The position numbers and the translations under genes are program-made. The notes beneath the pieces are model-generated. The model had not been told where the DNA came from, did no database searches, and saw nothing but the letters and a program-made list of their open reading frames with translations. Below, piece by piece: positions 1 through 44,924 of a stretch of DNA of 64,000 nucleotides (within the stretch, counting starts at the first letter, position 1; each line of letters starts with the position of its first letter). The DNA comes from Candidatus Eiseniibacteriota bacterium (GTDB lineage: Bacteria; Eisenbacteria; RBG-16-71-46; CAIMUX01; VGJL01): NCBI GenBank assembly GCA_963792585.1, contig CAWBWI010000006.1:416001-480000 (forward strand), in the 5' to 3' direction.

Positions 1-3000
1 CCTGTACGACGTCCCCCGACGCGATCGACTTCGGGACGGTGGCCGTAGGCGAGTCGGTCGACCGATCCTTCACGATTTCGAACGTGGGGTGCGAAGCGAT
101 CGCGGGGAACATCACCGAAGCATGCGCCGACGTCTCGATCCAGAGCGGAGGAGGACCGTACAGCCTCGCCCCCGGCGGATCGCGGACGGTCAGCGTGCGC
201 TTCCGACCGACCGGCGCCGGCGAGATCGCCTGCACGATCGAGACGGGCGCGCCGTCGTGTCCCGGGGTCGTCTGTACGGGCGAGGGCGGCGCGGCGACAT
301 GCAACCTCGATCCTCCCGCCCTCGAATTCGGGGCGGTTCAGAACGGCAGCTATCGGGACCTCGCGCTGCGGATCGAGAACAACGGAACGGAGACCCTGAG
401 CGGATCGATCCCTCCCTCCTGCGGGGACTTCGAGGTGATCGACGGCAGCGGCGACTACGCGATCCTCCCAGGAGAGGCGCGCAATCTGGTCGTCCGTTTC
501 CATGCGTCCGCCTGCGGCCCCTTTGCGTGCAGCCTCGATCTGGGCAACGCGCTCTGTGAGAGTGTCGAGTGCACGGGGACGAGCGGAGGGTCCGCCTGCT
601 CGGTGACTCCAAATCCGCTCGACTTCGGCGCCATCCCCGTCGGCTCATCGTTGGATCGATCCTTCACCATCACCAACGATGGGTGCGAGACCCTTGCCGG
701 CGCTGTTTCCGACACATGCGGCGCATTCGAGATCGTCGCGGGCGGCGGCGAACTCCAACTCGCTCCGGGCGCTTCGCGCGTGGTCACCGTGCGCTTCACA
801 CCCGCCGATTGCTCGATCCAAGCCTGTTCGATCGCGACCGGAAACGATCTCTGCGGCGCGGTCGCCTGCACGGGTTCAGGACTCGCGGCATCCTGTTCCC
901 TTACGCCCGCGACACTCGACTTCGGCGAGGTTCCACTCGGCGATCAGGCCGAGCTTCCGTTCCGGATCCGCAATACCGGCTGCGCCTCCCTTGATGGGAC
1001 GATCGCCCTTACCTGCCCCGACTACTCCCTCCCCGCCGGCGAGGGCGACTATTCCCTGGCCCCCGGCGAAGAAATGGAGGTGACCGTCCGGTTCCGCCCG
1101 AGCGAGTGCGGTCCGCAAGACTGCACCGTCACGACGGGCGTCACGGACTGCCCTGGGGTGGCGTGCTCAGGAGCGGGCAGCGGAACCGCGTGCGTCCTCG
1201 ACCCCGCGGAAATCTCGTTCGGGTCCGTCGCCGTCGGTCAGACGAAGGATCTCTCCTTCCAGATTCGCAACACGGGGTGCGACGCGATCTCGGGCTCCGT
1301 TTCCGAGGTCTGCGAAGCGTTCACGCTCGTCTCCGGCGGCGGCGACTACGAGCTCGCCCCGGGCGAGTCGCGCGACGTCACCGTCCGCTTCGCCCCGACG
1401 GATTGCGGCCCGAAGTCCTGTGACGTTCAGACGGGGTTCGCGAGCTGCCCGACCGTGGCGTGCTCGGGATCGAGCGATGTGCCGGATTGCTCCTTGTCGC
1501 TGCCGTCCCTCGAGTTCGGCACGGTCGCGCTGGGCCAGTCGGTGGACCGGAGCTTCTCGATCGCCAACGACGGCTGCGGGATCCTGACCGGCCAGGTCGC
1601 CGAGGGTTGCGCCGACTACGCGATCGTGGGCGGCGGAGGAAGCTTCCAGATTCCCGCCGGCCAGTCCCGCCAGGTGACCGTGCGGTTCACACCCACGGCA
1701 TGTGGTCCCCGTCCCTGCACGATTACGACCGGCGCGCCGGCATGCGGCGATGTGGCCTGCGCGGGCATCGGGGCCGGGCAGTCCTGCCAGGTGTTCCCGA
1801 CGACCCTCGACTTCGGCACGGTCGCGCTCGGTCGGTCGGCCGATCTGGATTTCAAGATCACCAACGCCGGGTGTGAATCGATCAGCGGCACGGTCGCGGA
1901 AACCTGCGCCGATTACTCTCTGGTCTCGGGCGGCGGAGCGTATCTGCTTTCGCCGGGGGAGGAGCGCACCGTGACCGTGCGCTTCGCGCCTGGAGGGTGC
2001 GGCACCCGGGGCTGCACGATCACCACCGGAGCGGCGGGGTGCGCAAACGTGAGCGCAACTGGAATCGGCGGCGGGACGGTCTGCTCGCTCGATCCACCGT
2101 CCCTCGCCTTCGGGGACATTCCCGTCGGCGGCTCGGCGACCCGGCAGTTCTCGATCCGGAACGACGGTTGCACGATCATCAGCGGAGCGGTCAGCGCGAC
2201 CTGCGTCGACTACACGATTGCAGCCGGCGACGGTGCCTTCGACCTCTCGCCCGGGGAGTCGCACGACGTCACCGTGCGCTTCTCCCCCACCGGTTGTGGA
2301 GCGCACCCGTGCACGATCGCCACGGGCTCGACCTCGTGCGAAGACGTACCGTGCACGGGCAGCGGCAGCGGCACCCTGTGTACCGTCACGCCAACTCTGC
2401 TCGACTTCGGATCCGCGCCGGTGGGCGACTTCGTGGATCGATCGTTCACGATACGAAACGACGGCTGTGATCGGATCCTGGGCGCGGTCGGCGAGTTGTG
2501 CGCCGACTTCTCAATTCCGTCGGGTGGTGGCCCGTACGACCTGGGAGCGGGCGAGAGCCTGCGAGTGACGGTCCGCTTCCAGCCGTCCACTCCCGGCGAA
2601 AAGGCCTGCACGGTGGAAACGGGTAGCGGCGCCTGCGCCGATGTTTCCTGCGTGGGGCTCGCCTGCCCAACCTCGCCGGTGACCCTCTTCGCGACCATGG
2701 ATGCGACGATCCGATCCGGCGCGCCCGATCAGAACGGTTGCCTCGAGCCCCTCCTCCATGTCGGCGTCGAGACCGGCGGAGGGGAGGAGGAGCGGGCGCT
2801 GTTTTCCTTTGATCTGGGCCAGATCCCGCCGGGCGCGATCGTGACCGACGTGTTACTGGCCGCCTACGAGGACGGCTGCGACCCCGTCCCCGTGACGGGG
2901 CGCGTGGCGAGCGACCTCTTGCTCCTGGAGGACGCGTGGGATGAGTGCTCCGTGACCTGGAGCAACGCGCCTGGAAGCGCGAGCCTGTCCTGCTCGGGCA

Positions 3001-3203
3001 CCTTCTTCTGCGACATCCCCGGGTACTATTTCTACACGTGCGGTTCGCTGGCGTCGGCGATCCAGGGCTGGATCGCCGATCCCTCCACGAATCACGGGCT
3101 CGCGATCGCGCCGACGAGCGCGCAGGACGGCGCCGCGACCCTGCTGTCGCGCCGTTTTGGCTCGAACGCGCCGCAATTGAAGGTCTGGTTCACCTGCCCG
3201 TGA
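1..3203 (+). CDS. Large extracellular Cys-rich protein: at least 9 tandem ~100-aa Ig-like (choice-of-anchor D/ASH-like) repeats plus C-terminal DNRLRE/CBM96-like domain; 5'-truncated by the window
   Basis: Repeating motif CxxxPxxLDFGxVxxG..F.I.NxGC..GGGxYxLxPGxSRxVTVRFxP. C-terminus DATIRS..N..RALFSFDL..IP.GA..WDE..VTW.NAP..PQL.V. The frame is open from base 3 (CTTSPTAIDFGTVAVG), so GTG 39 is not the true start. Confidence 0.85.
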   Translation, partial: CTTSPDAIDFGTVAVGESVDRSFTISNVGCEAIAGNITEACADVSIQSGGGPYSLAPGGSRTVSVRFRPTGAGEIACTIETGAPSCPGVVCTGEGGAATCNLDPPALEFGAVQNGSYRDLALRIENNGTETLSGSIPPSCGDFEVIDGSGDYAILPGEARNLVVRFHASACGPFACSLDLGNALCESVECTGTSGGSACSVTPNPLDFGAIPVGSSLDRSFTITNDGCETLAGAVSDTCGAFEIVAGGGELQLAPGASRVVTVRFTPADCSIQACSIATGNDLCGAVACTGSGLAASCSLTPATLDFGEVPLGDQAELPFRIRNTGCASLDGTIALTCPDYSLPAGEGDYSLAPGEEMEVTVRFRPSECGPQDCTVTTGVTDCPGVACSGAGSGTACVLDPAEISFGSVAVGQTKDLSFQIRNTGCDAISGSVSEVCEAFTLVSGGGDYELAPGESRDVTVRFAPTDCGPKSCDVQTGFASCPTVACSGSSDVPDCSLSLPSLEFGTVALGQSVDRSFSIANDGCGILTGQVAEGCADYAIVGGGGSFQIPAGQSRQVTVRFTPTACGPRPCTITTGAPACGDVACAGIGAGQSCQVFPTTLDFGTVALGRSADLDFKITNAGCESISGTVAETCADYSLVSGGGAYLLSPGEERTVTVRFAPGGCGTRGCTITTGAAGCANVSATGIGGGTVCSLDPPSLAFGDIPVGGSATRQFSIRNDGCTIISGAVSATCVDYTIAAGDGAFDLSPGESHDVTVRFSPTGCGAHPCTIATGSTSCEDVPCTGSGSGTLCTVTPTLLDFGSAPVGDFVDRSFTIRNDGCDRILGAVGELCADFSIPSGGGPYDLGAGESLRVTVRFQPSTPGEKACTVETGSGACADVSCVGLACPTSPVTLFATMDATIRSGAPDQNGCLEPLLHVGVETGGGEEERALFSFDLGQIPPGAIVTDVLLAAYEDGCDPVPVTGRVASDLLLLEDAWDECSVTWSNAPGSASLSCSGTFFCDIPGYYFYTCGSLASAIQGWIADPSTNHGLAIAPTSAQDGAATLLSRRFGSNAPQLKVWFTCP
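3..2670 (+). repeat. Nine imperfect ~300-bp intragenic tandem repeats
   Basis: Recurrent (C/G)TCGA(C/G)TTCGG and GT(C/G)AC(C/G)GT(C/G)CG(C/G)TTC blocks at ~300-bp period, matching the protein repeats. Confidence 0.85.
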
Positions 3204-6872: not shown

Positions 6873-6882
6873 AATAGGTCCA

Positions 6883-8446
<1,564 letters not shown>

Positions 8447-8506: not shown

Positions 8507-11236
8507 ATGTCACCTGCCGCTTGGCGTCGTCTGCCCGTCGCCATCCTGGTTCTCATCGCCTGCACGACTTCGCCCGCGGGTGCCGAGACGCCCGCGGGCC
8601 GTCTCGTGGTGCGCCTCACGGGGCAGCCGCCCGCCGGGATCGTCGCGCCCAGCATCACCGTGAGCGGTCCTACGGGTAGCCAGTCGACTCTGATCGGCGC
8701 CCTGGCACTGGCAACCGGTGAAGTGCGTTTCGATGCCCTCCGAGCGGGGACCTACGAGGTCCATCTCGAGGGATCCTCGTCCGGCCCGATTCGCGCCGAA
8801 GTGGGGGTGTTCGCGGGTTCGACGGCGGTCCTCGCCGCCGATCTCGAACGCGGCATTCTGCGGACCGACGCCCTTCGCCCCGATCCCTTCGGTGTGGACG
8901 ACGCGTGGGACGCTCCGTGGATCGAGGCCCTCCCGGGGGCAGGCGAGGACGCGCCCCGTGCCGCATCGACGGCTCCAGGTGGTCCCTATACGACGGCGAT
9001 CGACGGAGTCGGACTCGCGAGCGGCGGTTCGCGGCAGGATATCCGCGTGGGCGGAGCAGCAATGGCGCGCGCGTCGAGCGTTCCGCTGGGCCTCTCCTCC
9101 GCCGCGAGCAGCGGTGGGTCCCGCCGGACGTTATCGATGTCGGATCCCGCGTACGCGTCCTTCGAAGGGGCCACGGGCATGCTCGGCCGCTCCTCGTTCG
9201 AGGGGACGATCGCGCACGCCTTCCGGTCCACGGCCTGGCAACCGCAGCTGCTCATCACGACCCGCTCTCGAGACTACTTGAACGCCGGCGGAAGCGTCTT
9301 CCAGACATCCCGGCTGCCCCACGACGGCCTGGAGGCGCTCGAGCTCTATACGCGCGTGGAGGCCGCGCCGTCGGCGGCGACGCGCCTCTCCTTCCTGTTA
9401 TACGGTGAGGGTTCGAAACGCAATTACTTCATCGAATCGTATCGGCACGACCCGACCCATTCCCCGCGGCAGGATCGCGCCGACTTTCTCGCGACCCTTC
9501 GGCTCGACCGCGAGGTGCGCCGCGGCATGCAGGTCCGCGCCGAACTCGGCTGGCAGAGGTCCCTCGTCGCCATGGGCGATGGTCGCTACTTCGACGACCT
9601 GGAGAAATACGACCGATCGCTGTTCGGTAATCCGGGACCCGATCCTGCGCTGGGCGGTCTGTACTGGCTCGGAGACAATCGCTCCACACTCGCCGACGAG
9701 GGACACGTATACAATTCGTACCGGAAGAATGTTCAGGTCGACCTGAACGCGAAGGTGGAGATCTGGCGCAATCCCGGTACGGTCCGCACCGACGGCGCGG
9801 GGCTTTCGCTCCGTCGCGGGACCTACCGGAGCTACGAGCACTTCAACCCGGTTCAGGGAAGCACCACGAGCGTCCATGCGATCGGCTACGACGCGACGGG
9901 AGATCGACACAGCAACGCGGCGGATCGGGAACCGGGCCGTCCGATCGAGCTGGCCGGCTTCGGAACGGCGCGGCGTCCGGCGCTCGGCGGCGAGGTCGAG
10001 GTCGGAGCACGGCTAAGCGTCTATCGTGCGGGGCAACGGCCGCTGAAGGACCTGTCGAGGCCGCTGAGGCTGGTGGACGGCGAAGAGGTCGGACTCGATC
10101 TCGCGGACGCAGAGACCCGCGTGACCCTCGATCCACGGCTCGGATTCACCCGCGCGTTCGCCGGGAGCTATCGGTTCTGGCTGACCGGGGGAATCGAAAC
10201 GCAGGCACTCCCCTCTGAGGCGGTCTTCTACAGCGCGGCGTATCTCCGGCAGGCCGCGGCCGCGCAGGATGACGCGAATGCGGGCTTCGCCTTCGGGAAC
10301 CCAGCCCTGCGGCCGGAGAGGAACGCGAGCGTGCTCGCAGCCCTCGGGCGACCGCTGGGCCGAACTCTCACGCTGCGCGGGGGTGCAACGGCCGAACGAA
10401 CGACGGATGCGATCACCCCGCGTCGCTTCTATGTTCCCCGCGGGACCGCCGGGGCGATCGATTCGCTCGTCTACTACGTCAACGGGGACGCGCGGGACCG
10501 GGTCGGTCTCTTCGCGCGCGTCGAGTGGGAACCCTCCGGGCGTGTCCGGGCTCGGTTGTCCTACGACCTGTCCCGCGCGCGCACGCGCACCGTCGAACCC
10601 TCCGTTCTGGACGAAGGCTGGTTGGACCAGGACCTCCCGGGCAGAAGGGCCGACCTTCGCGAGGGACTCCCGTCGATCTTCCCCTCCAGCGATGATGGCA
10701 CATCGCGCGACCCGTACCCGTCCGACTTCGATCGCAGACATCGGGTCGCCGCCGCAATCGCGGTGCGAACCCCCCGGGACCTGATCGGCGAGACGGGGCG
10801 GTTCCTCTTCACCGATTTCGAGATCACCGCCCTGGCCCACGGGGCCTCCGGCGGCCCATTCTCCTGGACGCAGATCGATGAGCCGAGCGGCAGCGCAAGC
10901 CTTCCTCAGCCGATCGCGCTGGAGGCGACCGGCGTCACCCGCAACAGCGGCCGGCTGCCATGGACCGGGCAGCTCGATCTCCGCGTGGCCAAGAGCCTGG
11001 ACATCCGCAAGACGCGCGCCCAGATCTGGGTCGAGGGAACCAATCTGACGGATCACCGCAACGTCGTCCGCGTCTACAGCGCGACCGGAAAGGCGGACGA
11101 CGATGCGTGGCTGGACTACGGCGGGGCCGAGAGCACGGCAGCGGCCTCACAACTCTATCAGAATCGTTTGAAGGATCCGCGACACTACGGGGAGCCGCGG
11201 CTGTTCCGGGCGGGTATCCGGCTGGACCTGCCATAG
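8507..11236 (+). CDS. TonB-dependent receptor-like outer-membrane beta-barrel with N-terminal carboxypeptidase-regulatory-like domain
   Basis: Signal peptide; barrel motifs GNPALRPE, DFDRRHR, GGPFS, RLPWTGQLDLR, NLTDHRN, PRLFRAGIRLDL at the C-terminus; AAGGAGG SD. Confidence 0.75.
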   Translation: MSPAAWRRLPVAILVLIACTTSPAGAETPAGRLVVRLTGQPPAGIVAPSITVSGPTGSQSTLIGALALATGEVRFDALRAGTYEVHLEGSSSGPIRAEVGVFAGSTAVLAADLERGILRTDALRPDPFGVDDAWDAPWIEALPGAGEDAPRAASTAPGGPYTTAIDGVGLASGGSRQDIRVGGAAMARASSVPLGLSSAASSGGSRRTLSMSDPAYASFEGATGMLGRSSFEGTIAHAFRSTAWQPQLLITTRSRDYLNAGGSVFQTSRLPHDGLEALELYTRVEAAPSAATRLSFLLYGEGSKRNYFIESYRHDPTHSPRQDRADFLATLRLDREVRRGMQVRAELGWQRSLVAMGDGRYFDDLEKYDRSLFGNPGPDPALGGLYWLGDNRSTLADEGHVYNSYRKNVQVDLNAKVEIWRNPGTVRTDGAGLSLRRGTYRSYEHFNPVQGSTTSVHAIGYDATGDRHSNAADREPGRPIELAGFGTARRPALGGEVEVGARLSVYRAGQRPLKDLSRPLRLVDGEEVGLDLADAETRVTLDPRLGFTRAFAGSYRFWLTGGIETQALPSEAVFYSAAYLRQAAAAQDDANAGFAFGNPALRPERNASVLAALGRPLGRTLTLRGGATAERTTDAITPRRFYVPRGTAGAIDSLVYYVNGDARDRVGLFARVEWEPSGRVRARLSYDLSRARTRTVEPSVLDEGWLDQDLPGRRADLREGLPSIFPSSDDGTSRDPYPSDFDRRHRVAAAIAVRTPRDLIGETGRFLFTDFEITALAHGASGGPFSWTQIDEPSGSASLPQPIALEATGVTRNSGRLPWTGQLDLRVAKSLDIRKTRAQIWVEGTNLTDHRNVVRVYSATGKADDDAWLDYGGAESTAAASQLYQNRLKDPRHYGEPRLFRAGIRLDLP

Positions 11237-11245
11237 GGGAGGAGA

Positions 11246-12805
11246 ATGGCCGCGCGCTCGTCGATCGCTCCGCGTCGCCTCGCGATTCGGACCGCAACGC
11301 TGGCCTCGCTCGCCATCGCCTGCGTTGCCCAAGGGGGGGGAACCGTGCGCGAACCGATTCTCGCAGGGAGTTGGTATCCGGGGGAAGCCGTGGAGCTACG
11401 GACGACCGTCGAGGAGTTCCTTGCCGACGGCGGGGCGCCCGATGAGCGAACGATCGCGTTGATCGCGCCCCACGCCGGGTATGTCTACTCGGGAGCCACG
11501 GCCGGCAAGGCGTTCGCCGCGGTTCGCGGCCGGAAGGCCGAGCGCGTGATCTTGTTGGGTCCAAGCCATCGCGCTGCTTTCAACGGCGGCGCCCTGTCCA
11601 GTCAGGACGCATGGCGCACGCCGCTGGGCGAGGTTCCGCTGGACCGTGAGGCGATCGGCATGCTCGAGACGCGTCGAGGCTTTCGCGTCAACGACGCCGC
11701 GCATGGACGCGAGCACTCGCTCGAGATCGAGATCCCCTTCCTCCAGGTGGCGCTGCGGCCGGGTTGGAAGCTCGTCCCGATCATGGTCGGACAACTCGAC
11801 GACAAGACCGTGGGCGAACTCGCCGAGGGGATCGCTCCGCTCCTCGGCTCCGGAACCCTCGTCGTGGTCTCCTCCGACTTCACCCATTTCGGGCAGGACT
11901 ATGGATACGTGCCCTTCCGTGACTCGGTCGCGACACGGATCCGCAACCTCGACGAGGAGGGGATCGCCGCGATCCGTCGCATGTCGAGCGAGCAGTTCGA
12001 GGACTTTCGCGAACGCACTGGGGCGACGATCTGCGGGGCCGACCCGATCCGGGTGCTGCTGACCCTGATGGCGGGCCGCGCGCAGGAGGTCGTCCAGCGT
12101 GGTTACGATCAGTCGGGAGCGATGGTCGGGAGCTACACGAACTCGGTGAGCTACGCGGCGCTCACCTTCGCGCCGGCGACGTCGGAGGTCGCCGAAGGCG
12201 CGGAAGGCGCGACTGCGGCCGGCGCGAAGCGGGTCGGCCTGCACCGCCCCCTCGACACGGGCGAGCAGGAGGCGCTCCTCGCGCTCGCCCGCAATGCGAT
12301 CCGCGCCGCCGTGCGCGGGGCTGCCGCGCCGCCGGACCGCGTGCCCGATTCCTTCGCGCAGGACTCCCCCCTACGCCAGGAACGCGGCGTCTTCGTCACG
12401 CTCACCGAGGGAGGCGACCTCCGCGGCTGCATCGGAAGCATCATCGGCAAGGAGCCGCTCTACGCGGGCGTCCGGCGACAGGCGGTCCACGCCGCCCGGG
12501 AGGACCCGCGATTTCCGCCCGTCTCGTCAGGCGAACTGGAGAGGATCCACATCGAAATCTCGGTTCTCACGCCACCCGTTCCCGTGGCCGGGCCTCAGGA
12601 GATCGTTGTCGGGCGTCACGGCGTCCTGATCGAAAAGCGTGACCGCCGCGCCGTCTTCCTGCCACAGGTCGCCCCGGAGCAAGGATGGGATCGCGAGGAG
12701 ATGCTCCGGGCGTTGTGCCGCAAGGCCGGGCTCGCCGCCGACGACTGGAAGAGCGGAATGACCTTCGAGGTGTTCGAGGCCCAGATCTTCGAGGAGAAGG
12801 AGTAG
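11246..12805 (+). CDS. amrB: AmmeMemoRadiSam protein B (MEMO1-like)-protein A (AMMECR1-like) fusion with N-terminal signal-like segment
   Basis: AGSWYP, PHAGYVYSG, GPSH, EHSLE, SSDFTH, TICG, VSYAA (MEMO); GVFVTL, LRGCIG, DPRF, FLPQVA, LCRKAG (AMMECR1). Confidence 0.92.
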   Translation: MAARSSIAPRRLAIRTATLASLAIACVAQGGGTVREPILAGSWYPGEAVELRTTVEEFLADGGAPDERTIALIAPHAGYVYSGATAGKAFAAVRGRKAERVILLGPSHRAAFNGGALSSQDAWRTPLGEVPLDREAIGMLETRRGFRVNDAAHGREHSLEIEIPFLQVALRPGWKLVPIMVGQLDDKTVGELAEGIAPLLGSGTLVVVSSDFTHFGQDYGYVPFRDSVATRIRNLDEEGIAAIRRMSSEQFEDFRERTGATICGADPIRVLLTLMAGRAQEVVQRGYDQSGAMVGSYTNSVSYAALTFAPATSEVAEGAEGATAAGAKRVGLHRPLDTGEQEALLALARNAIRAAVRGAAAPPDRVPDSFAQDSPLRQERGVFVTLTEGGDLRGCIGSIIGKEPLYAGVRRQAVHAAREDPRFPPVSSGELERIHIEISVLTPPVPVAGPQEIVVGRHGVLIEKRDRRAVFLPQVAPEQGWDREEMLRALCRKAGLAADDWKSGMTFEVFEAQIFEEKE

Positions 12806-12812
12806 GAGGCGT

Positions 12813-13787
12813 GTGAGGCGACGGACCTTCCTCGGTCTGGCCGCCACCGCGGCGGTCGTGCGGCCCTCGTTCGGCGGAGAATCGGTGTTCGAGGGACGCG
12901 GTCGCGTCGCATCCGTCGTCGATGCCGCGGCGACGGACGGGAACGAAGCCGACACCCGATCCTCCCTTCAGCGCTGCCTGGAGCGTGGACTCGCCGCGAT
13001 CGCGGATCTCCCCGGCGCCGACGCATGGAGATCGATCTTTCGACCCGACGACCGCGTCGCGATCAAGCTGAATTGCCTCGCCGGCCCCCGGCTGGCGCCG
13101 CGCACGGAGTTGGTCGACGCGATCGTCCGCGGTCTCCACGGCGCCGGCGTCCGCGACGATGCGATCGTGATCTTCGACCGCACGTCGCGCGAGCTGGAAC
13201 GCGCGGGATTCCCGGTGCGGACCGCCGGGGGTTCCCTGCGTTGTTTCGGGACCGACGCCCTCGTTGGAGGCGGATACGGACCCGAGATCCTCGAGCACCG
13301 CTCGATTGGCTCGCTCTTCACGCGAATCGTCACCGAACACGCGACCGCTCTCATCAACGTCGGCGTCTGCAAGGATCACGATCTCGCGGGGGTCTCCGCC
13401 GGGGGCAAGAACCTGTACGGCCTCATCCACAACCCGAACCGGTATCACGCGAACGCTTGCGATCCCTACGTTGCCGATCTGCTCGATCACCCGGTCGTGA
13501 AGTCCAGGCTTCGCCTGACGATCATCGATGCGGAGACGATCCAGTGCCATGGCGGGCCCGCGTATCACGCGTCCTATACATTCCAGGCAGGCCGGATATT
13601 GCTCTCGCGCGATCCGGTCGCGGTCGATCGGATTGCGTGGGAGATGATCGAGGCGGAGCGGGCGCGACGCGGCCTCCCGTCACTCGCCGAAGAGGAGCGG
13701 GAGCCGAGGTGGATCATGACTGCGGAGGCGCTCGGGCTCGGCGTGGCCGACCGGGATCGGATCGACCTGCGGGAGGTGGCGGCATGA
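12813..13787 (+). CDS. DUF362 family putative Fe-S protein with Tat signal
   Basis: MRRRTFLGL twin-arginine leader; VAIKLN, KDH..AG...KNLYG, GGP, SRDPVAVD, LGLG motifs. Confidence 0.85.
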   Translation: MRRRTFLGLAATAAVVRPSFGGESVFEGRGRVASVVDAAATDGNEADTRSSLQRCLERGLAAIADLPGADAWRSIFRPDDRVAIKLNCLAGPRLAPRTELVDAIVRGLHGAGVRDDAIVIFDRTSRELERAGFPVRTAGGSLRCFGTDALVGGGYGPEILEHRSIGSLFTRIVTEHATALINVGVCKDHDLAGVSAGGKNLYGLIHNPNRYHANACDPYVADLLDHPVVKSRLRLTIIDAETIQCHGGPAYHASYTFQAGRILLSRDPVAVDRIAWEMIEAERARRGLPSLAEEEREPRWIMTAEALGLGVADRDRIDLREVAA

Positions 13788-13894
13788 GGATCGCGGGCTC
13801 GGGGCGGGTCGGCTTTCGGGTGGCACGGGGCGGCATACAGGGGGCGCGGACCTGCATGGGGGCGGCACAGGCGGATTCTTGGGAGACGCCATGA
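13784..13894 (+). CDS. Possible 36-aa peptide translationally coupled between DUF362 and amrS
   Basis: GGGAGGT SD; ATGA overlaps with both neighbouring genes; no recognisable homology. Confidence 0.25.
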   Translation: MRIAGSGRVGFRVARGGIQGARTCMGAAQADSWETP

Positions 13895-15051
13895 GCATCC
13901 CTGTCCCGGATCGACGAGACTTCCTCGCCCGCTGCGCGGGTTGCGCGGCCGCGATCGCCTTCGCCGATATCCTCGCCCGCCCAGCGTGGTCCGAAGACGT
14001 ATTCGAGTTCCAGAAACCGCAGGACGCGGCAGGAGGCGTCTCGGACGCGCGGGCTGCTTGGTGGGATGCGATGCCCGATGGACGGGTCACGTGCAGGCTC
14101 TGCCCCCGTGAGTGCCGCGTGGCGGATCAGGAACGGGGGTACTGCGGCGTGCGGGCGAACGAGGGGGGCGTCTACAAGACCCTGGTCCACGGACGGGTTG
14201 CGGCGGTTCACGTCGACCCGGTGGAAAAGAAGCCGTTCTTCCACGTCGTCCCGGGATCGGCCGCATACTCCCTCGCAACGGCCGGCTGCAACATGCAGTG
14301 CCGTTTTCGTCAGAACTGGGAGATCTCGCAATTCCGCCCCGAGCAGGTGCCGAGCGTCGAGGCGCCTCCGGAGCGGGTCGTCGCGGCGGCGCGTGCCGCC
14401 CGCGCGCCCTTCCTTGCCTATACCTACAGCGAGCCGGTCATCTTCTTCGAGTACATGCGAGAGATCGCGGATGCCGGAAACGCGGCCGGGATCCGGAGTC
14501 TCATGATCTCGAACGGGTATATTCAGGAAAAGCCGCTCCGCGAACTGCTGGGGCGCCTCGCCGCGGTGAAGATCGACCTGAAGGGATTCACCGAGGAGTA
14601 CTACCGGGACGTATGCGACGCGCAGCTGAAACCGGTGCTGGCCACTCTCGAGATCCTGAAGGATTCGGGCGTCTGGTTCGAGATCGTGGTTCTGGTCGTC
14701 CCTACGTTGAACGACGACGAGAAGTCGATGCGGGGCCTGTGTGCATGGATCGCCTCGCATCTCGGTCGCGAGGTGCCGATTCACTTCACACGGTTCCACC
14801 CCAACTACCGACTGCAGAACCTGCCCGTGACCCCGGTGAGAACCCTCGAACGGATCCATGGATACGCTCGCGAGGCGGGGTTGGCATTCGCCTACATCGG
14901 AAACGTTCCGGGTCATGCCGCGGAGAACACGATCTGTCCGGGGTGCGGGCATATCCTCGTTCGGCGGTCGGCTTATGCGGTTCTAGATATGTCCATCAAG
15001 GACGGGCGCTGTTCCAACTGCTCCCGCGTGATCCCAGGACTCTGGTCATAG
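13891..15051 (+). CDS. amrS: AmmeMemoRadiSam radical SAM enzyme with Tat-like leader; third cluster Cys reads Arg
   Basis: CRLCPREC..GYCGVR, DPVEKKPFFH, GCNMQCRFRQNWEISQ, AYTYSEP, IDLK, HFTRFHP, GNVPG..NT.CP.C; leader RRDFL. Confidence 0.9.
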   Translation: MSIPVPDRRDFLARCAGCAAAIAFADILARPAWSEDVFEFQKPQDAAGGVSDARAAWWDAMPDGRVTCRLCPRECRVADQERGYCGVRANEGGVYKTLVHGRVAAVHVDPVEKKPFFHVVPGSAAYSLATAGCNMQCRFRQNWEISQFRPEQVPSVEAPPERVVAAARAARAPFLAYTYSEPVIFFEYMREIADAGNAAGIRSLMISNGYIQEKPLRELLGRLAAVKIDLKGFTEEYYRDVCDAQLKPVLATLEILKDSGVWFEIVVLVVPTLNDDEKSMRGLCAWIASHLGREVPIHFTRFHPNYRLQNLPVTPVRTLERIHGYAREAGLAFAYIGNVPGHAAENTICPGCGHILVRRSAYAVLDMSIKDGRCSNCSRVIPGLWS

Positions 15052-17038
15052 CGGCCAGGGACGGGATCGCGAGGGCGAGCCCGACCGTCGCAAACCCCCG
15101 GGGCAGCAGGAAGAGAACCGCGACCGCGCCGATCACTCCGCCCACGGCATCCGCCGCCCAGGCGCGCGCCGCAGTCGCCTCCATCGAGACGATCGGGAAG
15201 GGAAGCCCGCATATGGCGCCGAGCGCGAGCGCGACGAGGGCATAGGCAGCGGTCAACGGCGGCAGGTGAGGTAGGGCCCAACCGCATCCGGCGGCGATCA
15301 GGATCTGCACGATCCCGATTGCGGGAAGCCAGCGCCAAGTCGCGCGGCGCATGACGGCGATCCAGGCCCCGATGGCCGTTCCGCCGAGGAAGGCGCCCAA
15401 GAGAACGCCCAATCCCGACTGCAGGATTCCGACCCGCGCCTGGAATGCCATGAGGACGAGGAGATCGAGCCCCATGGCAACGGCGCCGGCGGCAACGATC
15501 GGAGCTTCTCTCCGTTTCGCGCCGGCTGGGAGCGAAAGCAACAGGAGCGGTAACAACAAGCCCAGCCATGAGGGAAGACCGGTCGGGAATCCCATCATCT
15601 TCGACCAGCGACCCAGGGCGTAGGCGAAGGCGGCCGGTCGATCGTCTCGATTGGCAAGAGCCGGCGCCGGCGACGCGAGTCGGGATCGGGGATACTCGAC
15701 GACGAAGCGGGCGGCAGGATATGTCGCAAAGCGCCACGCGCCGCGGTCGTGCCGGGCTCTTAGGGAGTCGGGATCGAGTGATGCATCCCCCGCCTGCCGC
15801 GACGCGGCCAGGATGTAGCGATCCGCGTCGATCGCCGATACCGGCCCGACCGACACCCGCATCGCCGCCGCAACGCTCGATCGCCATGCCCGGGTCTCCT
15901 CCCCCGGCGCCGCCTCCCCGCCCGGCGCGATGGCAATCACGACGCCCTCGGGCGCGAGCGCCTTCGTCATGTCACGGAAGGCTTCCGCCGTCCAGAGCCG
16001 GTTCGCCGAAACACCGGTCGCTTCGCCGCCCGTGATCGCGATCGCATCCCAGGTCGCTTGTACATTTCGGATCGTTCTCCGCGGGTCACCGACTCCATAT
16101 GCCACGGCGCCGCCGGGCTGCGCGAAGAGCGTGTCCTCTCGCTCCGGGACCAGACACAGAACCCGCGCCGCACCCGCTCTGACGAGCGCGGCGGCGATGC
16201 CCTCGGTCCCGAAGTCAACCAGGAGGAACGCCCGGGCGCGCGGAGGGCAGGATGCGAGCAGCGCCGCAGTGGCTTCGGCGGTCGTCGGGTCGTCCAGGAT
16301 TGCCAACAGGCAATCGTCTGCGAAGAGCCAGCGCTGGCCTTCGCGCTCCGCGAGCGCGAGCGTGCGCTGGGGGGTGGCCGCATGTGCAATGAGGTGGAGT
16401 CCCGGGCGTCGGCTCTCCCAGGACGAGCGGAAGAGCCACTCATCGATGCGCGTCACCGGACCGCCCACGACGAGCAGAAGGACTGCAACCGCTCCAATGG
16501 TCCCTGTGGTTCGACGCCAGGCGAGGAGGACGCAAACGGCACCGCCCGCGAGAATCCCGATCGCGGGAACGCGAAGCACGAAGAGCACGGTCGTCAGCAC
16601 TCCCCCGACCACCGCGCCCAGCGCCTCGACGACATACGCGCGCCCGACTCTCTCCGCGGCGACCGGGAAGACACCCGCCGTGAAGAACGCCGCCGGGAAG
16701 AGAACGATGAACGCGAGCCAGGCGACCGCTGCCGGGCGTGGCAACTCGCCGGGCAGACTCCCCGGCAAGGCTGCGAACCGCGCGAGGACGAGTGAGCTGA
16801 CTGCAACCAGGAGCCCCAGGCTCAGCAACCGGATCGCGGAGGAAGGCCCGAGCGGCTTGATCCGACGCCAGGTGAGCGCGCCGATCGCGGAGCCGAGCAA
16901 CCAGAAGGAGAGGGCAAGCGTGAGGACGATCTCGTTTCCGCCACAGCGGGCGAGAAGTTCTCGTAAGAGGACCGCCTGCGCGGGCAAGGAGACCAGCCCG
17001 ATCAGAAACGGCGCGGCATCCCGATGGTCAATCCGCAT
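14996..17038 (-). CDS. Membrane protein of fused MFS-like/spermidine-synthase-like family (degenerate SAM-binding motifs)
   Basis: QAVLLRELL..GGNE..WLLGSAIG, YVVEALG, GDPRR, ANRLWTAEAF..L.PEG, NRDDRP, WAADAVGG; transmembrane blocks at both ends. Confidence 0.75.
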   Translation of the reverse strand: MRIDHRDAAPFLIGLVSLPAQAVLLRELLARCGGNEIVLTLALSFWLLGSAIGALTWRRIKPLGPSSAIRLLSLGLLVAVSSLVLARFAALPGSLPGELPRPAAVAWLAFIVLFPAAFFTAGVFPVAAERVGRAYVVEALGAVVGGVLTTVLFVLRVPAIGILAGGAVCVLLAWRRTTGTIGAVAVLLLVVGGPVTRIDEWLFRSSWESRRPGLHLIAHAATPQRTLALAEREGQRWLFADDCLLAILDDPTTAEATAALLASCPPRARAFLLVDFGTEGIAAALVRAGAARVLCLVPEREDTLFAQPGGAVAYGVGDPRRTIRNVQATWDAIAITGGEATGVSANRLWTAEAFRDMTKALAPEGVVIAIAPGGEAAPGEETRAWRSSVAAAMRVSVGPVSAIDADRYILAASRQAGDASLDPDSLRARHDRGAWRFATYPAARFVVEYPRSRLASPAPALANRDDRPAAFAYALGRWSKMMGFPTGLPSWLGLLLPLLLLSLPAGAKRREAPIVAAGAVAMGLDLLVLMAFQARVGILQSGLGVLLGAFLGGTAIGAWIAVMRRATWRWLPAIGIVQILIAAGCGWALPHLPPLTAAYALVALALGAICGLPFPIVSMEATAARAWAADAVGGVIGAVAVLFLLPRGFATVGLALAIPSLAAMTRVLGSRGSSWNSARP

Positions 17039-17465: not shown

Positions 17466-17520
17466 TTGACACTCTCGACACGGAGAGGTTAGTCTCGCCT
17501 GTTTGTGAACTCATTTGCAT
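17466..17520 (+). promoter_or_regulatory. Putative sigma70 promoter of the act/cox operon with Rex-box-like operator
   Basis: TTGACA 17466-17471, 18 bp, TAGTCT 17490-17495; TTGTGAA-ctca-TTTGCAT 17503-17520. Confidence 0.5.
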
Positions 17521-18171
17521 ATGAATAGAACACCTTTTCCTGACTGGACCAACTCACTGCGGATCTGGCTGGGCGTCGCCCTGGCCGGTATCCCGGTTTA
17601 CCTATTCCTCCTGATCGCTTACGGCACGCACGCGAAGACGACCGCGGTCGGCTACATGCCGGAGCAGCCGGTTCCGTACAGCCATGCGCTGCACGCTGGC
17701 CAGCTCGGGATCGACTGCCGCTACTGCCACACCACGGTCGAGAACGCGGCGATGGCCGCCCTCCCGCCGACCCAGATCTGCATGAACTGCCATCAAAAAG
17801 TGCGCGCCGGCAGCGAGAAGCTGATTCCGGTTCGCGAGAGCTTCGCGACGGGAATGCCGATCCCGTGGATCAAGGTTCACGACCTGCCCGACTACGTCTA
17901 CTTCAACCACAGCGCGCACGTGACGCGCGGCGTCGGATGCGTTTCCTGCCACGGCCGGATCGACAAGATGGATGTCGTCTCCCAGGACCAGCCGCTCACG
18001 ATGGGCTGGTGCCTCGATTGCCACCGGCAACCGGAGAAGTACCTGCGGCCGGTCGAGGACGTGACCCGGATGGATTGGACGGCCGGCGAGGACCAGCTGG
18101 AACTCGGCCGGCGGCTCCGCACGGAGAGAAACATCAACCCTTCGACGGACTGTACGACATGTCATCGATAG
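17521..18171 (+). CDS. actA: Alternative complex III pentaheme cytochrome c subunit A
   Basis: N-terminal TM helix; QPVPYSHALH; five CxxCH (CRYCH, CMNCH, CVSCH, CLDCH, CTTCH); LPDYVYFNHSAH. Confidence 0.92.
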   Translation: MNRTPFPDWTNSLRIWLGVALAGIPVYLFLLIAYGTHAKTTAVGYMPEQPVPYSHALHAGQLGIDCRYCHTTVENAAMAALPPTQICMNCHQKVRAGSEKLIPVRESFATGMPIPWIKVHDLPDYVYFNHSAHVTRGVGCVSCHGRIDKMDVVSQDQPLTMGWCLDCHRQPEKYLRPVEDVTRMDWTAGEDQLELGRRLRTERNINPSTDCTTCHR

Positions 18172-21153
18172 ACCGCACCGACCGCTACTGGCGGAGTCTC
18201 GAGGAGCAGGCCGACACGCCGGAGTTCCGGCGATGCTGGCCCGTGAGTTCCCGAGCGAGCCCTGGGAGTCGCTCCCCCCAGCGACCCGTCGCCAGTTCCT
18301 CAAGGTGATGGGCGCCTCGCTCGCGCTGGCGGGACTCGCGGGGTGCCGCTGGCCGCGCGAAGAGATCGTCCCCTTCGCGCGACCGGCCGGCTACACACCG
18401 GGCGTGCCGCTGCAGTACGCGACGGCGATGGAACTCGGCGGCGCGGCGAGCGGCCTGCTGGTCACCAGCTACGACGGCCGGCCGATCAAGATCGAGGGCA
18501 ACCCGTCCCATCCGACCAACCTCGGCGCGGCGGACGCGATCACGCAGGCGAGCGTCCTCGACCTCTACGACCCCGCCCGCAGCCGCGCCGTGATCCGGCG
18601 CCAGGGCGGACAGAGGCTCGCGCCGGGCTGGGCAGACTTCGCCGGGTTCGCGAGCGAGCAGTTCGGCGCGCTCCGGAGTCGGGGCGGCCAGGGTCTGCAC
18701 ATCCTCAGCGAGGCGAGTTCCTCGTCGAGCCTCGACGCCCTGCGGGAACGCCTTCAGACCGTGTATCCTCGCGCGACGTGGCACGAGTACGAGCCGCTCT
18801 CCTGGGACAACGAGCGGGAAGGGACAGCGCTGGCCTTCGGCCGGCCGATGCGCGCGCACCTCGCCCTCGAGAAGGCCGACGTGATCGTCTGTCTCGACGC
18901 CGATCCTGCTCGCAGATCACCCGGCGGCGGTCCTGCATGCACGGGATTTCGCCGCGGGCCGTCGCAAGGCCGATTCAGGCTCGATGAACCGTCTCTACGC
19001 GGTCGAGAGCGCCTTCTCCGTCACGGGCACGATGGCCGACCATCGCTTCCCGGTGCAGTCGCGGCAGGTCGAGACGCTCGCGGCGGCAGATGGCGCCTGG
19101 CCGTCCTGCCCCGACGGGGCCGCGCTCGCGCGGTACGCGGAATCTTCCTTCCACGCCGCGCTTCGTCGAGACGATCACACAGGATCTGCTGGCCCACCGG
19201 GGCCGTTGCGTCGTCGTCGCGGGGCCGCGCCAGCCGGCGGAAGTCCATGCCCTCGTCCACCTGATGAACGCCGCGCTCGGGAACGTCGGCGCAACGGTCA
19301 CGTACACGGAGGATCCGCGGCCCGAACGGCCGGCGCACGTCCGGGCGATCTATAGCCTGACCGAGCAGATGCGCGCGGGCGGCGTCGACACGCTCTTGGT
19401 CCTCGGCGGCAACCCGGTCTACGACGCTCCCGCGGACCTCGATTTCGCCGGCGCGCTCGCGAAGGTCCCGAACAGCATCCACCTCAGTCTCGCCGACGAC
19501 GAGACCTCGCGCGCCTGCCAGTGGCACCTGCCGCGCGCCCACTATCTCGAGAGCTGGGGCGATGCGCGCGCCTTCGACGGAACGGTGAGCATCGTGCAGC
19601 CGCTCATCGAGCCGCTCTACGAGGGGAAGTCGCCGATCGAGGTCCTCTCGATCGTGCTGGACGATCCCCCCATGAAAGGCTACGACATCGTCCGCGCAGC
19701 TCTGGCCCCGATGGCCGGAGATGGCGACTTCGAGCGGTTCTGGAGGCGATCCCTCCACGACGGGATCATCGCGAACAGCGCGCTACCCGGTCGCGACGCC
19801 GACGGCCCGCGCTGCGGCCGAGCTTCGCTACACGTGAGCGGCGCGCCGATCGGCCGGCCTGGAGGTCGTCTTCGCACGCGATCCGAAGGTCTACGACGGC
19901 CGGTTCGCGAACAACGGGTGGCTCCAGGAAATGCCCGAGCCGTTGACCAAGATGACCTGGGACAATGCGGCGATCATGGGTCCTGCGACGGCCAAGGCGC
20001 TCGGCGTCAAGGCCGACGATCTCGTCACGTTACGCTGCGGCGGTCGCGAGATCGAGGCGGCCGGTCTATGTCCTGCCCGGGCAGACCGCAGCGGAATCGA
20101 TTACCATCCACCTCGGCTACGGCCGCACGGCGGCAGGCAAGGTCGGCGATCGACGCGGGCTTCGACGCCTACCGCCTGCGCACGAGCGCGACGCTGGGCT
20201 TTGCCGGGGACGCGACGATCCAGAAGACGGGCCGCACGTACCCGCTCTCCTGCACGCAGGACCATCACGCGATCGACCTGATCGGGCTGCGGGGCACGGA
20301 GAAGCGCCTGGGCGAACTGATCCGCGAGGCGGAGCTCGCCGAGTACAAGAATGGCCCCGAGTCGGTGCCAGGAGACGTTCCACGAGCCCGCGCTGCACCA
20401 GCTGTACGCGTCCCATCCTTACACCGAGGGCCACCAGTGGGGCATGTCGATCGACCTGAACTCCTGCACCGGCTGCAGCGCGTGCGTCGTCGCCTGCCAG
20501 GCGGAGAACAACATCCCGGTCGTCGGGCAAGGAGCAGGTCGGGCGCAGCCGCGAGATGCACTGGCTCCGCATCGACCGCTACTTCAAGGGCGATCCCGAA
20601 GCTCCTCGAGGTCGCGCACCAGCCGGTGGCCTGCGTGCAGTGCGAGAACGCGCCCGTGCGAGCAGGTCTGCCCGGTGGCCGCCACGGTGCACAGCGCGCG
20701 AGGGCCTCAACGAGATGGTCTACAACCGCTGCGTCGGCACGCGCTACTGCGCGAACAACTGCCCCTACAAGGTCCGGCGCTTCAACTGGTTCAACTTCCA
20801 CAAGGATCTGACGGAGACCGAGAAGATGGCCCACAACCCCGAGGTGACGGTCCGCAGCCGCGGCGTGATGGAGAAGTGCACCTACTGCGTGCAGCGGATC
20901 GAAGCGGTCAAGATCGCCGCGAAGAACGACGGGCCGGCCGATCGCGCGACGGCGAGATCGTCGCCCGCCTGCGCCCAGACCTGCCCGACGCCAGGCGATC
21001 GTCTTCGGCGACCTCGAACGACCCGACGAGCCGGGTCTCGCGAACTGCACGAGCACGCCGCGCGCCTACGCGCCTGCTCGACGAGCTGAACACGCGGCCG
21101 CGCACCGCGCTACCTGGCCAAGATCGCAACCCGGAACCACGGCTGGAAGGAGC

Positions 21154-44768: not shown

Positions 44769-44777
44769 CCCGCTGTT

Positions 44778-44859
44778 GGTCGTTGGGGGTGTCCCGAGGG
44801 GGGACTGAGAAGAAACCCCGAGTACCTGATCTGGGTGATGCCAGCGTAGGGAAACGACC
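44778..44859 (+). ncRNA. TPP riboswitch upstream of thiOSGE
   Basis: P1 GGTCGTT/AACGACC; GGGGTG..CTGAGA..ACCCCG-AGTACCTGATCTGGGTGATGCCAGCGTAGGGA core. Confidence 0.95.
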
Positions 44860-44924
44860 CCTCCGCACGAGCCTACAGGCCCCCCCCTCCTCGGAGATCC
44901 GCGACCTTCCATGAAAGGAGCGAG

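Follow-up and report, generated by a model that had tools for sequence, protein, structure and literature searches.

The AmmeMemoRadiSam triad consists of a radical S-adenosylmethionine (SAM) enzyme, AmrS, and two non-radical parts, AmrA (AMMECR1) and AmrB (Memo); AMMECR1 and MEMO1 have human homologues. Radical SAM enzymes are generally assigned to the cytoplasm, on the grounds that SAM and low-potential electrons are available there, and a 2019 proposal by Burroughs reportedly gave the triad a role in nucleic-acid or lipid modification, of which only the lipid half would fit a periplasmic version. Here we describe positions 8507..17038 of a 64,000-nucleotide (nt) stretch (the window) of contig CAWBWI010000006.1 from Candidatus Eiseniibacteriota, where AmrS, an AmrB-AmrA fusion and a DUF362 protein begin with predicted export leaders, downstream of a putative TonB-dependent receptor (TBDR) and convergent with a membrane protein that contains a SAM-fold domain. 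The locus belongs to a real, widespread and apparently undescribed exported variant of the triad, with AmrS, AmrB-AmrA and the membrane SAM-fold protein as its core, an optional DUF362 and a peripheral receptor.

The window proteins resemble the canonical system in that all three family profiles (TIGR04337, TIGR04335 and TIGR04336) pass and the Memo metal-site and AMMECR1 residues are invariant. They differ in the leaders on all parts, the AmrB-AmrA fusion, the membrane SAM-fold partner and the loss of the third cluster cysteine. Outward-facing redox modules occur in the exported clade, whereas leaderless paralogues from the same genomes lack leaders, fusion, partner and modules. The only solved relative of AmrS by sequence is the pyruvate formate-lyase (PFL) activating enzyme (PDB 3c8f; E 1.6e-4, residues 135-302), from which AmrS differs by extra N- and C-terminal Cys-rich modules and a twin-arginine translocation (Tat) leader; no glycyl-radical enzyme recurs among the cassette neighbors. 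The membrane protein is related to membrane-fused aminopropyltransferases (PRK03612) and spermidine synthases fused to major facilitator superfamily (MFS) domains (NF037959), which 52 and 35 of its 60 family members match, respectively. Unlike these and Thermus SpeE (1uir), it lacks the GGG[DE]G motif and carries its domain between two six-helix repeats, on the predicted periplasmic side. DUF362, which may bind a nickel-pincer cofactor, shares two residues in register with the nickel-pincer nucleotide enzymes of the LarA type (including NphT), but has a Tat leader and no LarA C-domain. Finally, FMN_bind and Fer4_5 modules beside or fused to AmrS or the membrane protein recall the NapH-like flavinylated systems, whose flavin mononucleotide (FMN) domains are described as extracytosolic (PMC8238504); the window cassette has no such module, and the main text of that paper is silent on radical, Memo and spermidine. 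An excerpt of another paper mentions Memo-Ammecr1 systems only in passing (PMC7159879). Our literature searches, which covered few subscription papers and to which supplements could add, returned no report of AmrS export or of any radical SAM enzyme in the periplasm.

Results

A first-pass annotation of the window had reported five clustered genes at this locus, and we found all five at the positions it gave. The amrS gene (13891..15051, + strand) encodes a 386-residue product (P0136) that scores 358.6 bits against TIGR04337 (cut-off 220). Its likely start, an ATG at 13891 with GGAG upstream (alternative start, 13879), precedes the RRDFL motif. The leader (13891..13992) has its arginine pair at 13912-13917, followed by a hydrophobic (h-) region and an A-W-S cleavage-like site. 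Twin-arginine leaders had been read in both AmrS (DRRDFL...PAWS) and DUF362 (MRRRTFLGL), and both are present.

As Tat-substrate features we looked for an RR-x-hydrophobic pair, an h-region and a cleavage site, and leaders were scored with a Tat rule. The best 120 of 7,577 AmrS homologues were taken; six were too short and were dropped, leaving 114 with a full N-terminal extension. The rule was passed by 107 of these, compared to 2.4 expected from 200 shuffles of each extension, and 94 of the 107 have an AxA-like cleavage site. As controls, none of 21 second AmrS paralogues and none of 70 short AmrS representatives passed. None of the 21 paralogues has amrA, amrB or DUF362 nearby, and one has a SpdS-like gene. 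Of 100 loci examined, 20 came from relatives and 80 were taken from named genomes; AmrS (with four leader labels set by eye) was Tat-type in 84, Sec- or anchor-type in six, split in five, truncated in two and leaderless in three. An independent set of 80 metagenome loci contained 71 Tat-type AmrS proteins, five that were cut by contig ends, three Sec-like and one split.

In a FastTree phylogeny, the 97 signal-bearing or split AmrS proteins group with support of 0.81 and 19 paralogues group with support of 1.0; one Sec-type AmrS falls among the paralogues. Carriers of the exported type include Planctomycetota (among them anammox genera), Acidobacteriota, Zixibacteria, deltaproteobacteria, Ignavibacteria, Omnitrophota and others, with Thermoanaerobaculum aquaticum among the named ones; the closest named homologues of AmrS are from Candidatus Eisenbacteria. 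The host genome of the window (5.4 Mb, 84% complete) encodes TatC (G000:C1:1202039-1202656), one AmrA and, on another contig, a second, leaderless AmrS. This paralogue (G000:C3:248361-249365, L062) is flanked by a restriction-modification methylase-like gene and a SpoU methylase, with neither amrA nor amrB nearby.

We also surveyed fusions among the best 150 representatives from a profile search, scanning the 48 long ones. AmrS follows a single helix and an FMN_bind domain with a flavinylation motif, with no helix between (P0179 and P0183); NapH-like modules (P0171 and P0173); or DsbD/CcdA-like (DsbD_2) modules (P0174 and P0177); in P0184 it is fused to both of the latter kinds. Other architectures are signal-Memo-AMMECR1-AmrS (P0191), signal-CBM11-AmrS (P0178) and signal-propeller-AmrS (P0172). 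Leaderless triple fusions of the order AmrS-AMMECR1-Memo are common among the representatives (P0210, P0217, P0219 and others), and four AmrS homologues (P0220, P0228, P0256 and P0298) contain inteins with LAGLIDADG domains near the cluster motif.

In one clade (support 0.935), AmrS begins only a few residues before its first Cys, and a tiny downstream open reading frame (ORF) encodes an RRxF leader together with the strand motif that normally opens AmrS. When ranked among ~30,000 sequence windows, this motif held the top place in L061 and L135 and the second place in L138. A further first rank, in L123, falls at the end of a SpdS-NapH fusion, and a separate small Tat-leader ORF lies downstream of amrS there. 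The layout is repeated in L255. For L126, where the contig runs out just past amrS, we did not find the motif; small upstream ORFs with motif-like ends occur in L061 and L126, and these ends fell outside the top five ranks. We infer that the split leader may provide hitchhiker export of AmrS by strand complementation.

The AmrB-AmrA ORF (11246..12805, + strand) scores 176.5 bits against TIGR04335 (cut-off 99) and 233.6 against TIGR04336 (cut-off 26). All 59 aligned fusions retain H76, H108, E160, D211, H214 and C263 in the Memo part and R393, C395, D420 and R422 in the AMMECR1 part. The signal-like N-terminus noted earlier (11246..11335) proved to be a family-wide trait: a hydrophobic Sec-type signal was present in 39 of 41 scored proteins (20 of 61 were left unscored as the anchor motif was missed), and the arginine pair seen here is not conserved. 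The proposed export of AmrS, AmrB-AmrA and DUF362 is thus well supported by leader conservation, the controls, the fusions and the split-leader genes, and the AmrS system is likely located outside the inner membrane.

The convergent gene (14996..17038, - strand) overlaps amrS by 56 nt. The first-pass annotation had called it a membrane spermidine-synthase-like gene; its convergence and its SAM-fold hold, and it is a core partner, but it is not a spermidine synthase. Although the window protein has no Pfam or NCBIfam match of its own, its family profile matches Thermus SpeE at E ~7e-41 to 8e-41 over the length of the domain. The protein is encoded beside AmrS in 68 of 97 signal-type loci (in 65 within 3.5 kb, in either orientation) and is the best-conserved partner of exported AmrS. 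It was found in 29 of 41 relatives, and all 29 also have AmrS.

Hydropathy indicates 14 helices, of which 1-6 show homology to 9-14 (hhalign probability 97%, E 5e-11), making two MFS-like six-helix repeats around a helix-domain-helix insert; two family members have weak MFS_1 matches below the cut-off. From the alternation of Lys/Arg-rich loops, the domain between helices 7 and 8 is predicted to face outward. The fusions in L123 and L135, in which one more helix puts the FMN domain outside, fit the same parity, but the basic flanks of the SAM-fold domain itself are at odds with it. This domain (residues 195-489; 15572..16456, - strand) contains GGG[DE]G, the motif for decarboxylated SAM that appears in alignments to PDB sequences, in 0 of 60 members. 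The Asp after the IID strand, the general base in aminopropyltransferases, is present in six of 60 and is Thr in the window. Since the motif is absent throughout and the Asp is missing from 54 of 60, we rejected spermidine synthase activity. D318 and D331 are each kept in 59 of 60 members and R347 in all 60, and the retention of D318 makes SAM binding plausible for most of the family. The earlier suggestion that the protein handles SAM or a product agrees with its core membership and the predicted periplasmic position of its domain, but not with the state of SAM motif I in the lineage of the window, where it is eroded (DFGTEG in the window protein). Our best guess is that the protein is a SAM exporter or exchanger; the rival is a periplasmic transferase.

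DUF362 (12813..13787, + strand; leader RRRTFL, 12813..12875) was found in 38 of the 65 plain Tat loci but in none of 32 other loci (NapH-fused, split-leader or CxxCH-insert). As it is present in only part of the former and none of the latter, we regard it as optional. It alternates with NapH fusions and with the CxxCH insert, which occurs in 19 loci of a single clade. In that clade (L057, L060, L086-L088, L090, L094-L097, L104, L105, L107, L111, L112, L116, L117, L119 and L140), a CxxCH and His-rich insert lies between the first strand of AmrS and the Cys module and may be a heme c or metal site. An RR motif is found in 43 of 53 DUF362 leaders; since most DUF362 proteins of the host genome also carry one, the leader is a trait of the DUF362 family.

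The annotation had proposed that DUF362 supplies electrons. Its absence where other electron modules occur is in keeping with that role, but none of its Cys residues is invariant, and the protein looks more like a LarA-type nickel-pincer enzyme than a ferredoxin. The residues invariant in 39 of 39 proteins are K85, K187, H189, K199 and H212; the best Cys positions are C216 (34 of 39) and C144 (26 of 39), for which reason a ferredoxin-like Fe-S carrier was rejected. The similarity to the LarA N-domain is modest (hhalign probability 58%, E 1e-4), and no PDB sequence matched the DUF362 profile. H189 and K199 align to the His and Lys of the LarA motif HxFAGFxGGxK, and H212 would correspond to the LarA nickel His but lies 13, not 16, residues after the Lys, an offset of 3. 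An excerpt of PMC11770544 assigns LarA His174, K184 and His200 roles in catalysis, cofactor attachment and nickel.

The host genome has LarC, and LarB did not exceed the cut-off in this 84% complete assembly. In family f3, LarB and LarC are present in 15 of 15 genomes, LarA exceeds the cut-off in none, and this type of DUF362 is present in 13. Counter-examples are G018 and G028, which have larBC without LarA or DUF362, and G023, which has a DUF362-like match without LarC. Non-LarA clients of the nickel-pincer cofactor exist; DUF362 is not named among them in the main text of PMC13524815. From these residues, we take DUF362 most probably to be a hydride-transferring nickel-pincer enzyme and not an Fe-S carrier.

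A second type of DUF362 is paired with a membrane polyferredoxin in 10 loci. A second Tat-DUF362 also occurs near the cassette (L050:14584-15993, with equivalents in L047 and L055); the L050 copy is fused to an FlgD-Ig sorting-type domain. Nitroreductase-domain genes lie near the cassette in four loci (L102:8570-10588, L126, L134 and L142).

In the window AmrS, a CGT codon (14308..14310) puts Arg in place of the third Cys of CxxxCxxC (CNMQCRF-R-Q). Among 296 AmrS proteins, only this one and P0137, from a different assembly, have the Arg; the other 294 keep CxxxCxxC, as do all 80 metagenome loci. We rejected sequencing error as the sole cause, as a separate assembly shares the change. Contigs from four runs (~90-96% identity) cover amrS but do not settle the codon. 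As the Arg is shared by a separate assembly and relatives 95% identical to the window AmrS keep the Cys, the change is probably real and recent. The window AmrS may therefore be impaired or atypical, and the claim of periplasmic radical chemistry concerns the clade, not the window copy.

Neighboring genes

The TBDR-like outer-membrane protein (8507..11236, + strand; Sec-type signal) matches only PF25183 in Pfam (E 0.002, below the cut-off), and its ESM Atlas neighbors are all of the TBDR type, at 0.97-0.98. The short gaps described earlier apply to TBDR-amrBA (9 nt) and amrBA-DUF362 (7 nt) but not to DUF362-amrS (103 nt). The receptor is a single-copy gene across the order, with a homologue in 36 of 41 relatives. 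In families f1 and f2 it lies within ~11 kb of amrBA, on the same strand, in 10 of 10 genomes with AmrA, and directly upstream in six; in f2 (G011, G015, G019, G023 and G027) amrBA stays beside it while amrS and the membrane gene are elsewhere. Synteny with amrBA is confined to these two families. The two are unlinked in 15 of 15 f3 genomes, and no TBDR homologue was found in 160 further loci by a homology-limited search in which many loci were short; apparent matches in L115 and L136 were actually ThiC, from a contaminated profile. The receptor travels in a lat-asnII-TBDR block and, mostly in the company of asnII and lat, persists in six genomes that lack AmrS, AmrA and the membrane protein. 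The simpler explanation of the linkage is conserved gene order, not shared function, and the receptor is probably a lineage-level neighbor rather than a required part. The co-occurrence that the annotation had suggested looking for across amrS loci held for the membrane partner and, in part, for DUF362, and for the receptor in families f1 and f2 only.

No promoter or terminator signals above chance and no RNA families were found inside the cassette. Contigs from RNA runs cover parts of all five genes, a coverage that does not show transcription. A plasmid search returned six records at ~41-43% identity and nothing useful, and a metagenome scan returned no close strain (best, 60%). Directly upstream of the receptor are a thiamine pyrophosphate (TPP) riboswitch (6880-7018, +) and thiC (6968-8446, +), separated from it by 60 nt in which no terminator was found. 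The thiC gene is absent from this position in relatives; thiC-like genes lie just upstream of Tat-AmrS in L115 and L136. A second TPP riboswitch is at 44775-44869 (+). On the other side of the cassette, multiheme cytochrome and QrcB-like genes of the alternative complex III type (17515-20811, +) recur in linkage in three close relatives; the QrcB-like gene is split over at least two frames in the window and is a single 1048-residue ORF in one relative. A surface protein at 39-3203 (+) has about nine choice-of-anchor D Ig repeats and a DNRLRE/CBM96 domain.

Discussion

We propose that the exported clade of AmrS, AmrA and AmrB acts at the periplasmic face of the inner membrane. AmrS, with its conserved leader, would receive its iron-sulfur cluster in the cytoplasm and leave folded through Tat. 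AmrB-AmrA, whose signal and catalytic residues are intact, would exit through Sec. The convergent membrane protein, to judge from its computed topology and co-conservation, may supply SAM to AmrS or exchange it for spent products. Reducing power could come from interchangeable outward-facing modules, some of them seen as fusions: NapH-like/FMN, DsbD/CcdA-like, the CxxCH insert or DUF362. AmrS would then act on AmrA, or on a substrate from the envelope that AmrB-AmrA holds, by generating a 5'-deoxyadenosyl radical there; we favor such activase-like action because the only solved relative of AmrS is the PFL activase. As a whole, this scheme strikes us as close to an even proposition, shading slightly toward doubt. 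The more general statement, that many phyla run radical SAM catalysis in the periplasm using a SAM-exporting MFS-like protein and interchangeable electron conduits, including a Tat-exported nickel-pincer enzyme, is more tentative and falls somewhat further below even.

Several observations weigh against this proposal. The window AmrS itself has CxxxCxxR where active radical SAM enzymes have CxxxCxxC. Its leader scores 15.6 bits against TIGR01409 at residues 11-29 (cut-off 16.7), and the window DUF362 has no match to Tat hidden Markov models (HMMs) at E<=0.01; because the window leaders score below the cut-off, the support for export comes from conservation across the family and not from a single HMM pass. 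The Tat rule was devised for this analysis and is not a dedicated predictor. In several fusions the leader or anchor is Sec-like and has no clean RR, and export of this kind would require cluster assembly outside the cytoplasm. Erosion of SAM motif I affects every one of the 13 rows that represent the window and its two closest sampled families. The mutual exclusivity of electron modules rests on few clades, not independent events. In G017 and G029 (86% and 68% complete), AmrS and the membrane protein were found and AmrA was not. Our literature searches turned up no periplasmic SAM pool, and a supplement on Kuenenia (PMC2881027) lists kustd1804, its one entry with the name PFL-activating enzyme, without a signal; this may be either paralogue.

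Some of these points would suit an AmrS that is exported without doing SAM radical chemistry outside, either as an Fe-S redox or structural subunit or for a single turnover with pre-bound SAM, the membrane protein being otherwise employed. The lack of a periplasmic SAM supply in the literature searched, the eroded SAM motif in the lineage of the window and the tolerance of CxxxCxxR in two assemblies with intact reading frames all agree with this explanation. However, the near-universal retention of CxxxCxxC (294 of 296 proteins and 80 of 80 metagenome loci), the membrane SAM-fold protein at 68 of 97 loci and its match to AmrS in presence and absence across most relatives speak against it, and we consider it unlikely.

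An explanation that is improbable to a similar degree is that the membrane protein is not a SAM transporter but a methyl- or aminoalkyl-transferase facing the periplasm, which completes a lipid, glycan or protein that AmrS and AmrB-AmrA make for the envelope. Its SAM-fold domain is homologous over its length to aminopropyltransferases, D318, D331 and R347 are nearly or fully invariant, and in one family the cassette has glycosyl- and methyltransferases as neighbors. However, those flanking genes are specific to that family, GGG[DE]G and most of the general-base Asp column are missing, the 6+6 helix repeat is transporter-like, and a transferase would still require SAM outside.

It is more doubtful that all five genes form one functional unit in which the receptor imports the substrate, as first suggested, or is itself the modified target. 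The 9-nt gap in the window and the proximity of the receptor to amrBA in 10 of 10 f1 and f2 genomes, even where amrS is elsewhere, are consistent with such a unit, but the receptor is linked in none of the 15 f3 genomes, has no homologue in the 160 further loci and is retained in six genomes that lack the system; lat and asnII travel with it equally. Least probable, and in our view very unlikely, is that the leaders are membrane tethers or vestigial motifs on enzymes that stay on the cytoplasmic side: Tat-like false positives exist (PMC2881027 names NarG as one), the AmrS leader is below threshold and radical SAM chemistry as generally understood needs SAM and low-potential electrons, but AxA-like sites follow most AmrS leaders, AmrB-AmrA has cleavable Sec-type signals, and no helix separates AmrS from the flavinylated FMN, CBM11 and propeller domains that immediately precede it in fusions.

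If our proposal of periplasmic catalysis is correct, the exported clade, with a SAM-fold membrane protein and electron conduits of its own, would run counter to the rule that radical SAM enzymes work only in the cytoplasm and would mean that SAM passes through the inner membrane. DUF362 is now a candidate nickel-pincer enzyme of a new kind that can be put to the test. A periplasmic triad is unlikely to act on RNA or DNA, which constrains the AMMECR1/MEMO1/radical SAM reaction, and the periplasm would offer a soluble, nucleic-acid-free setting in which to find it.

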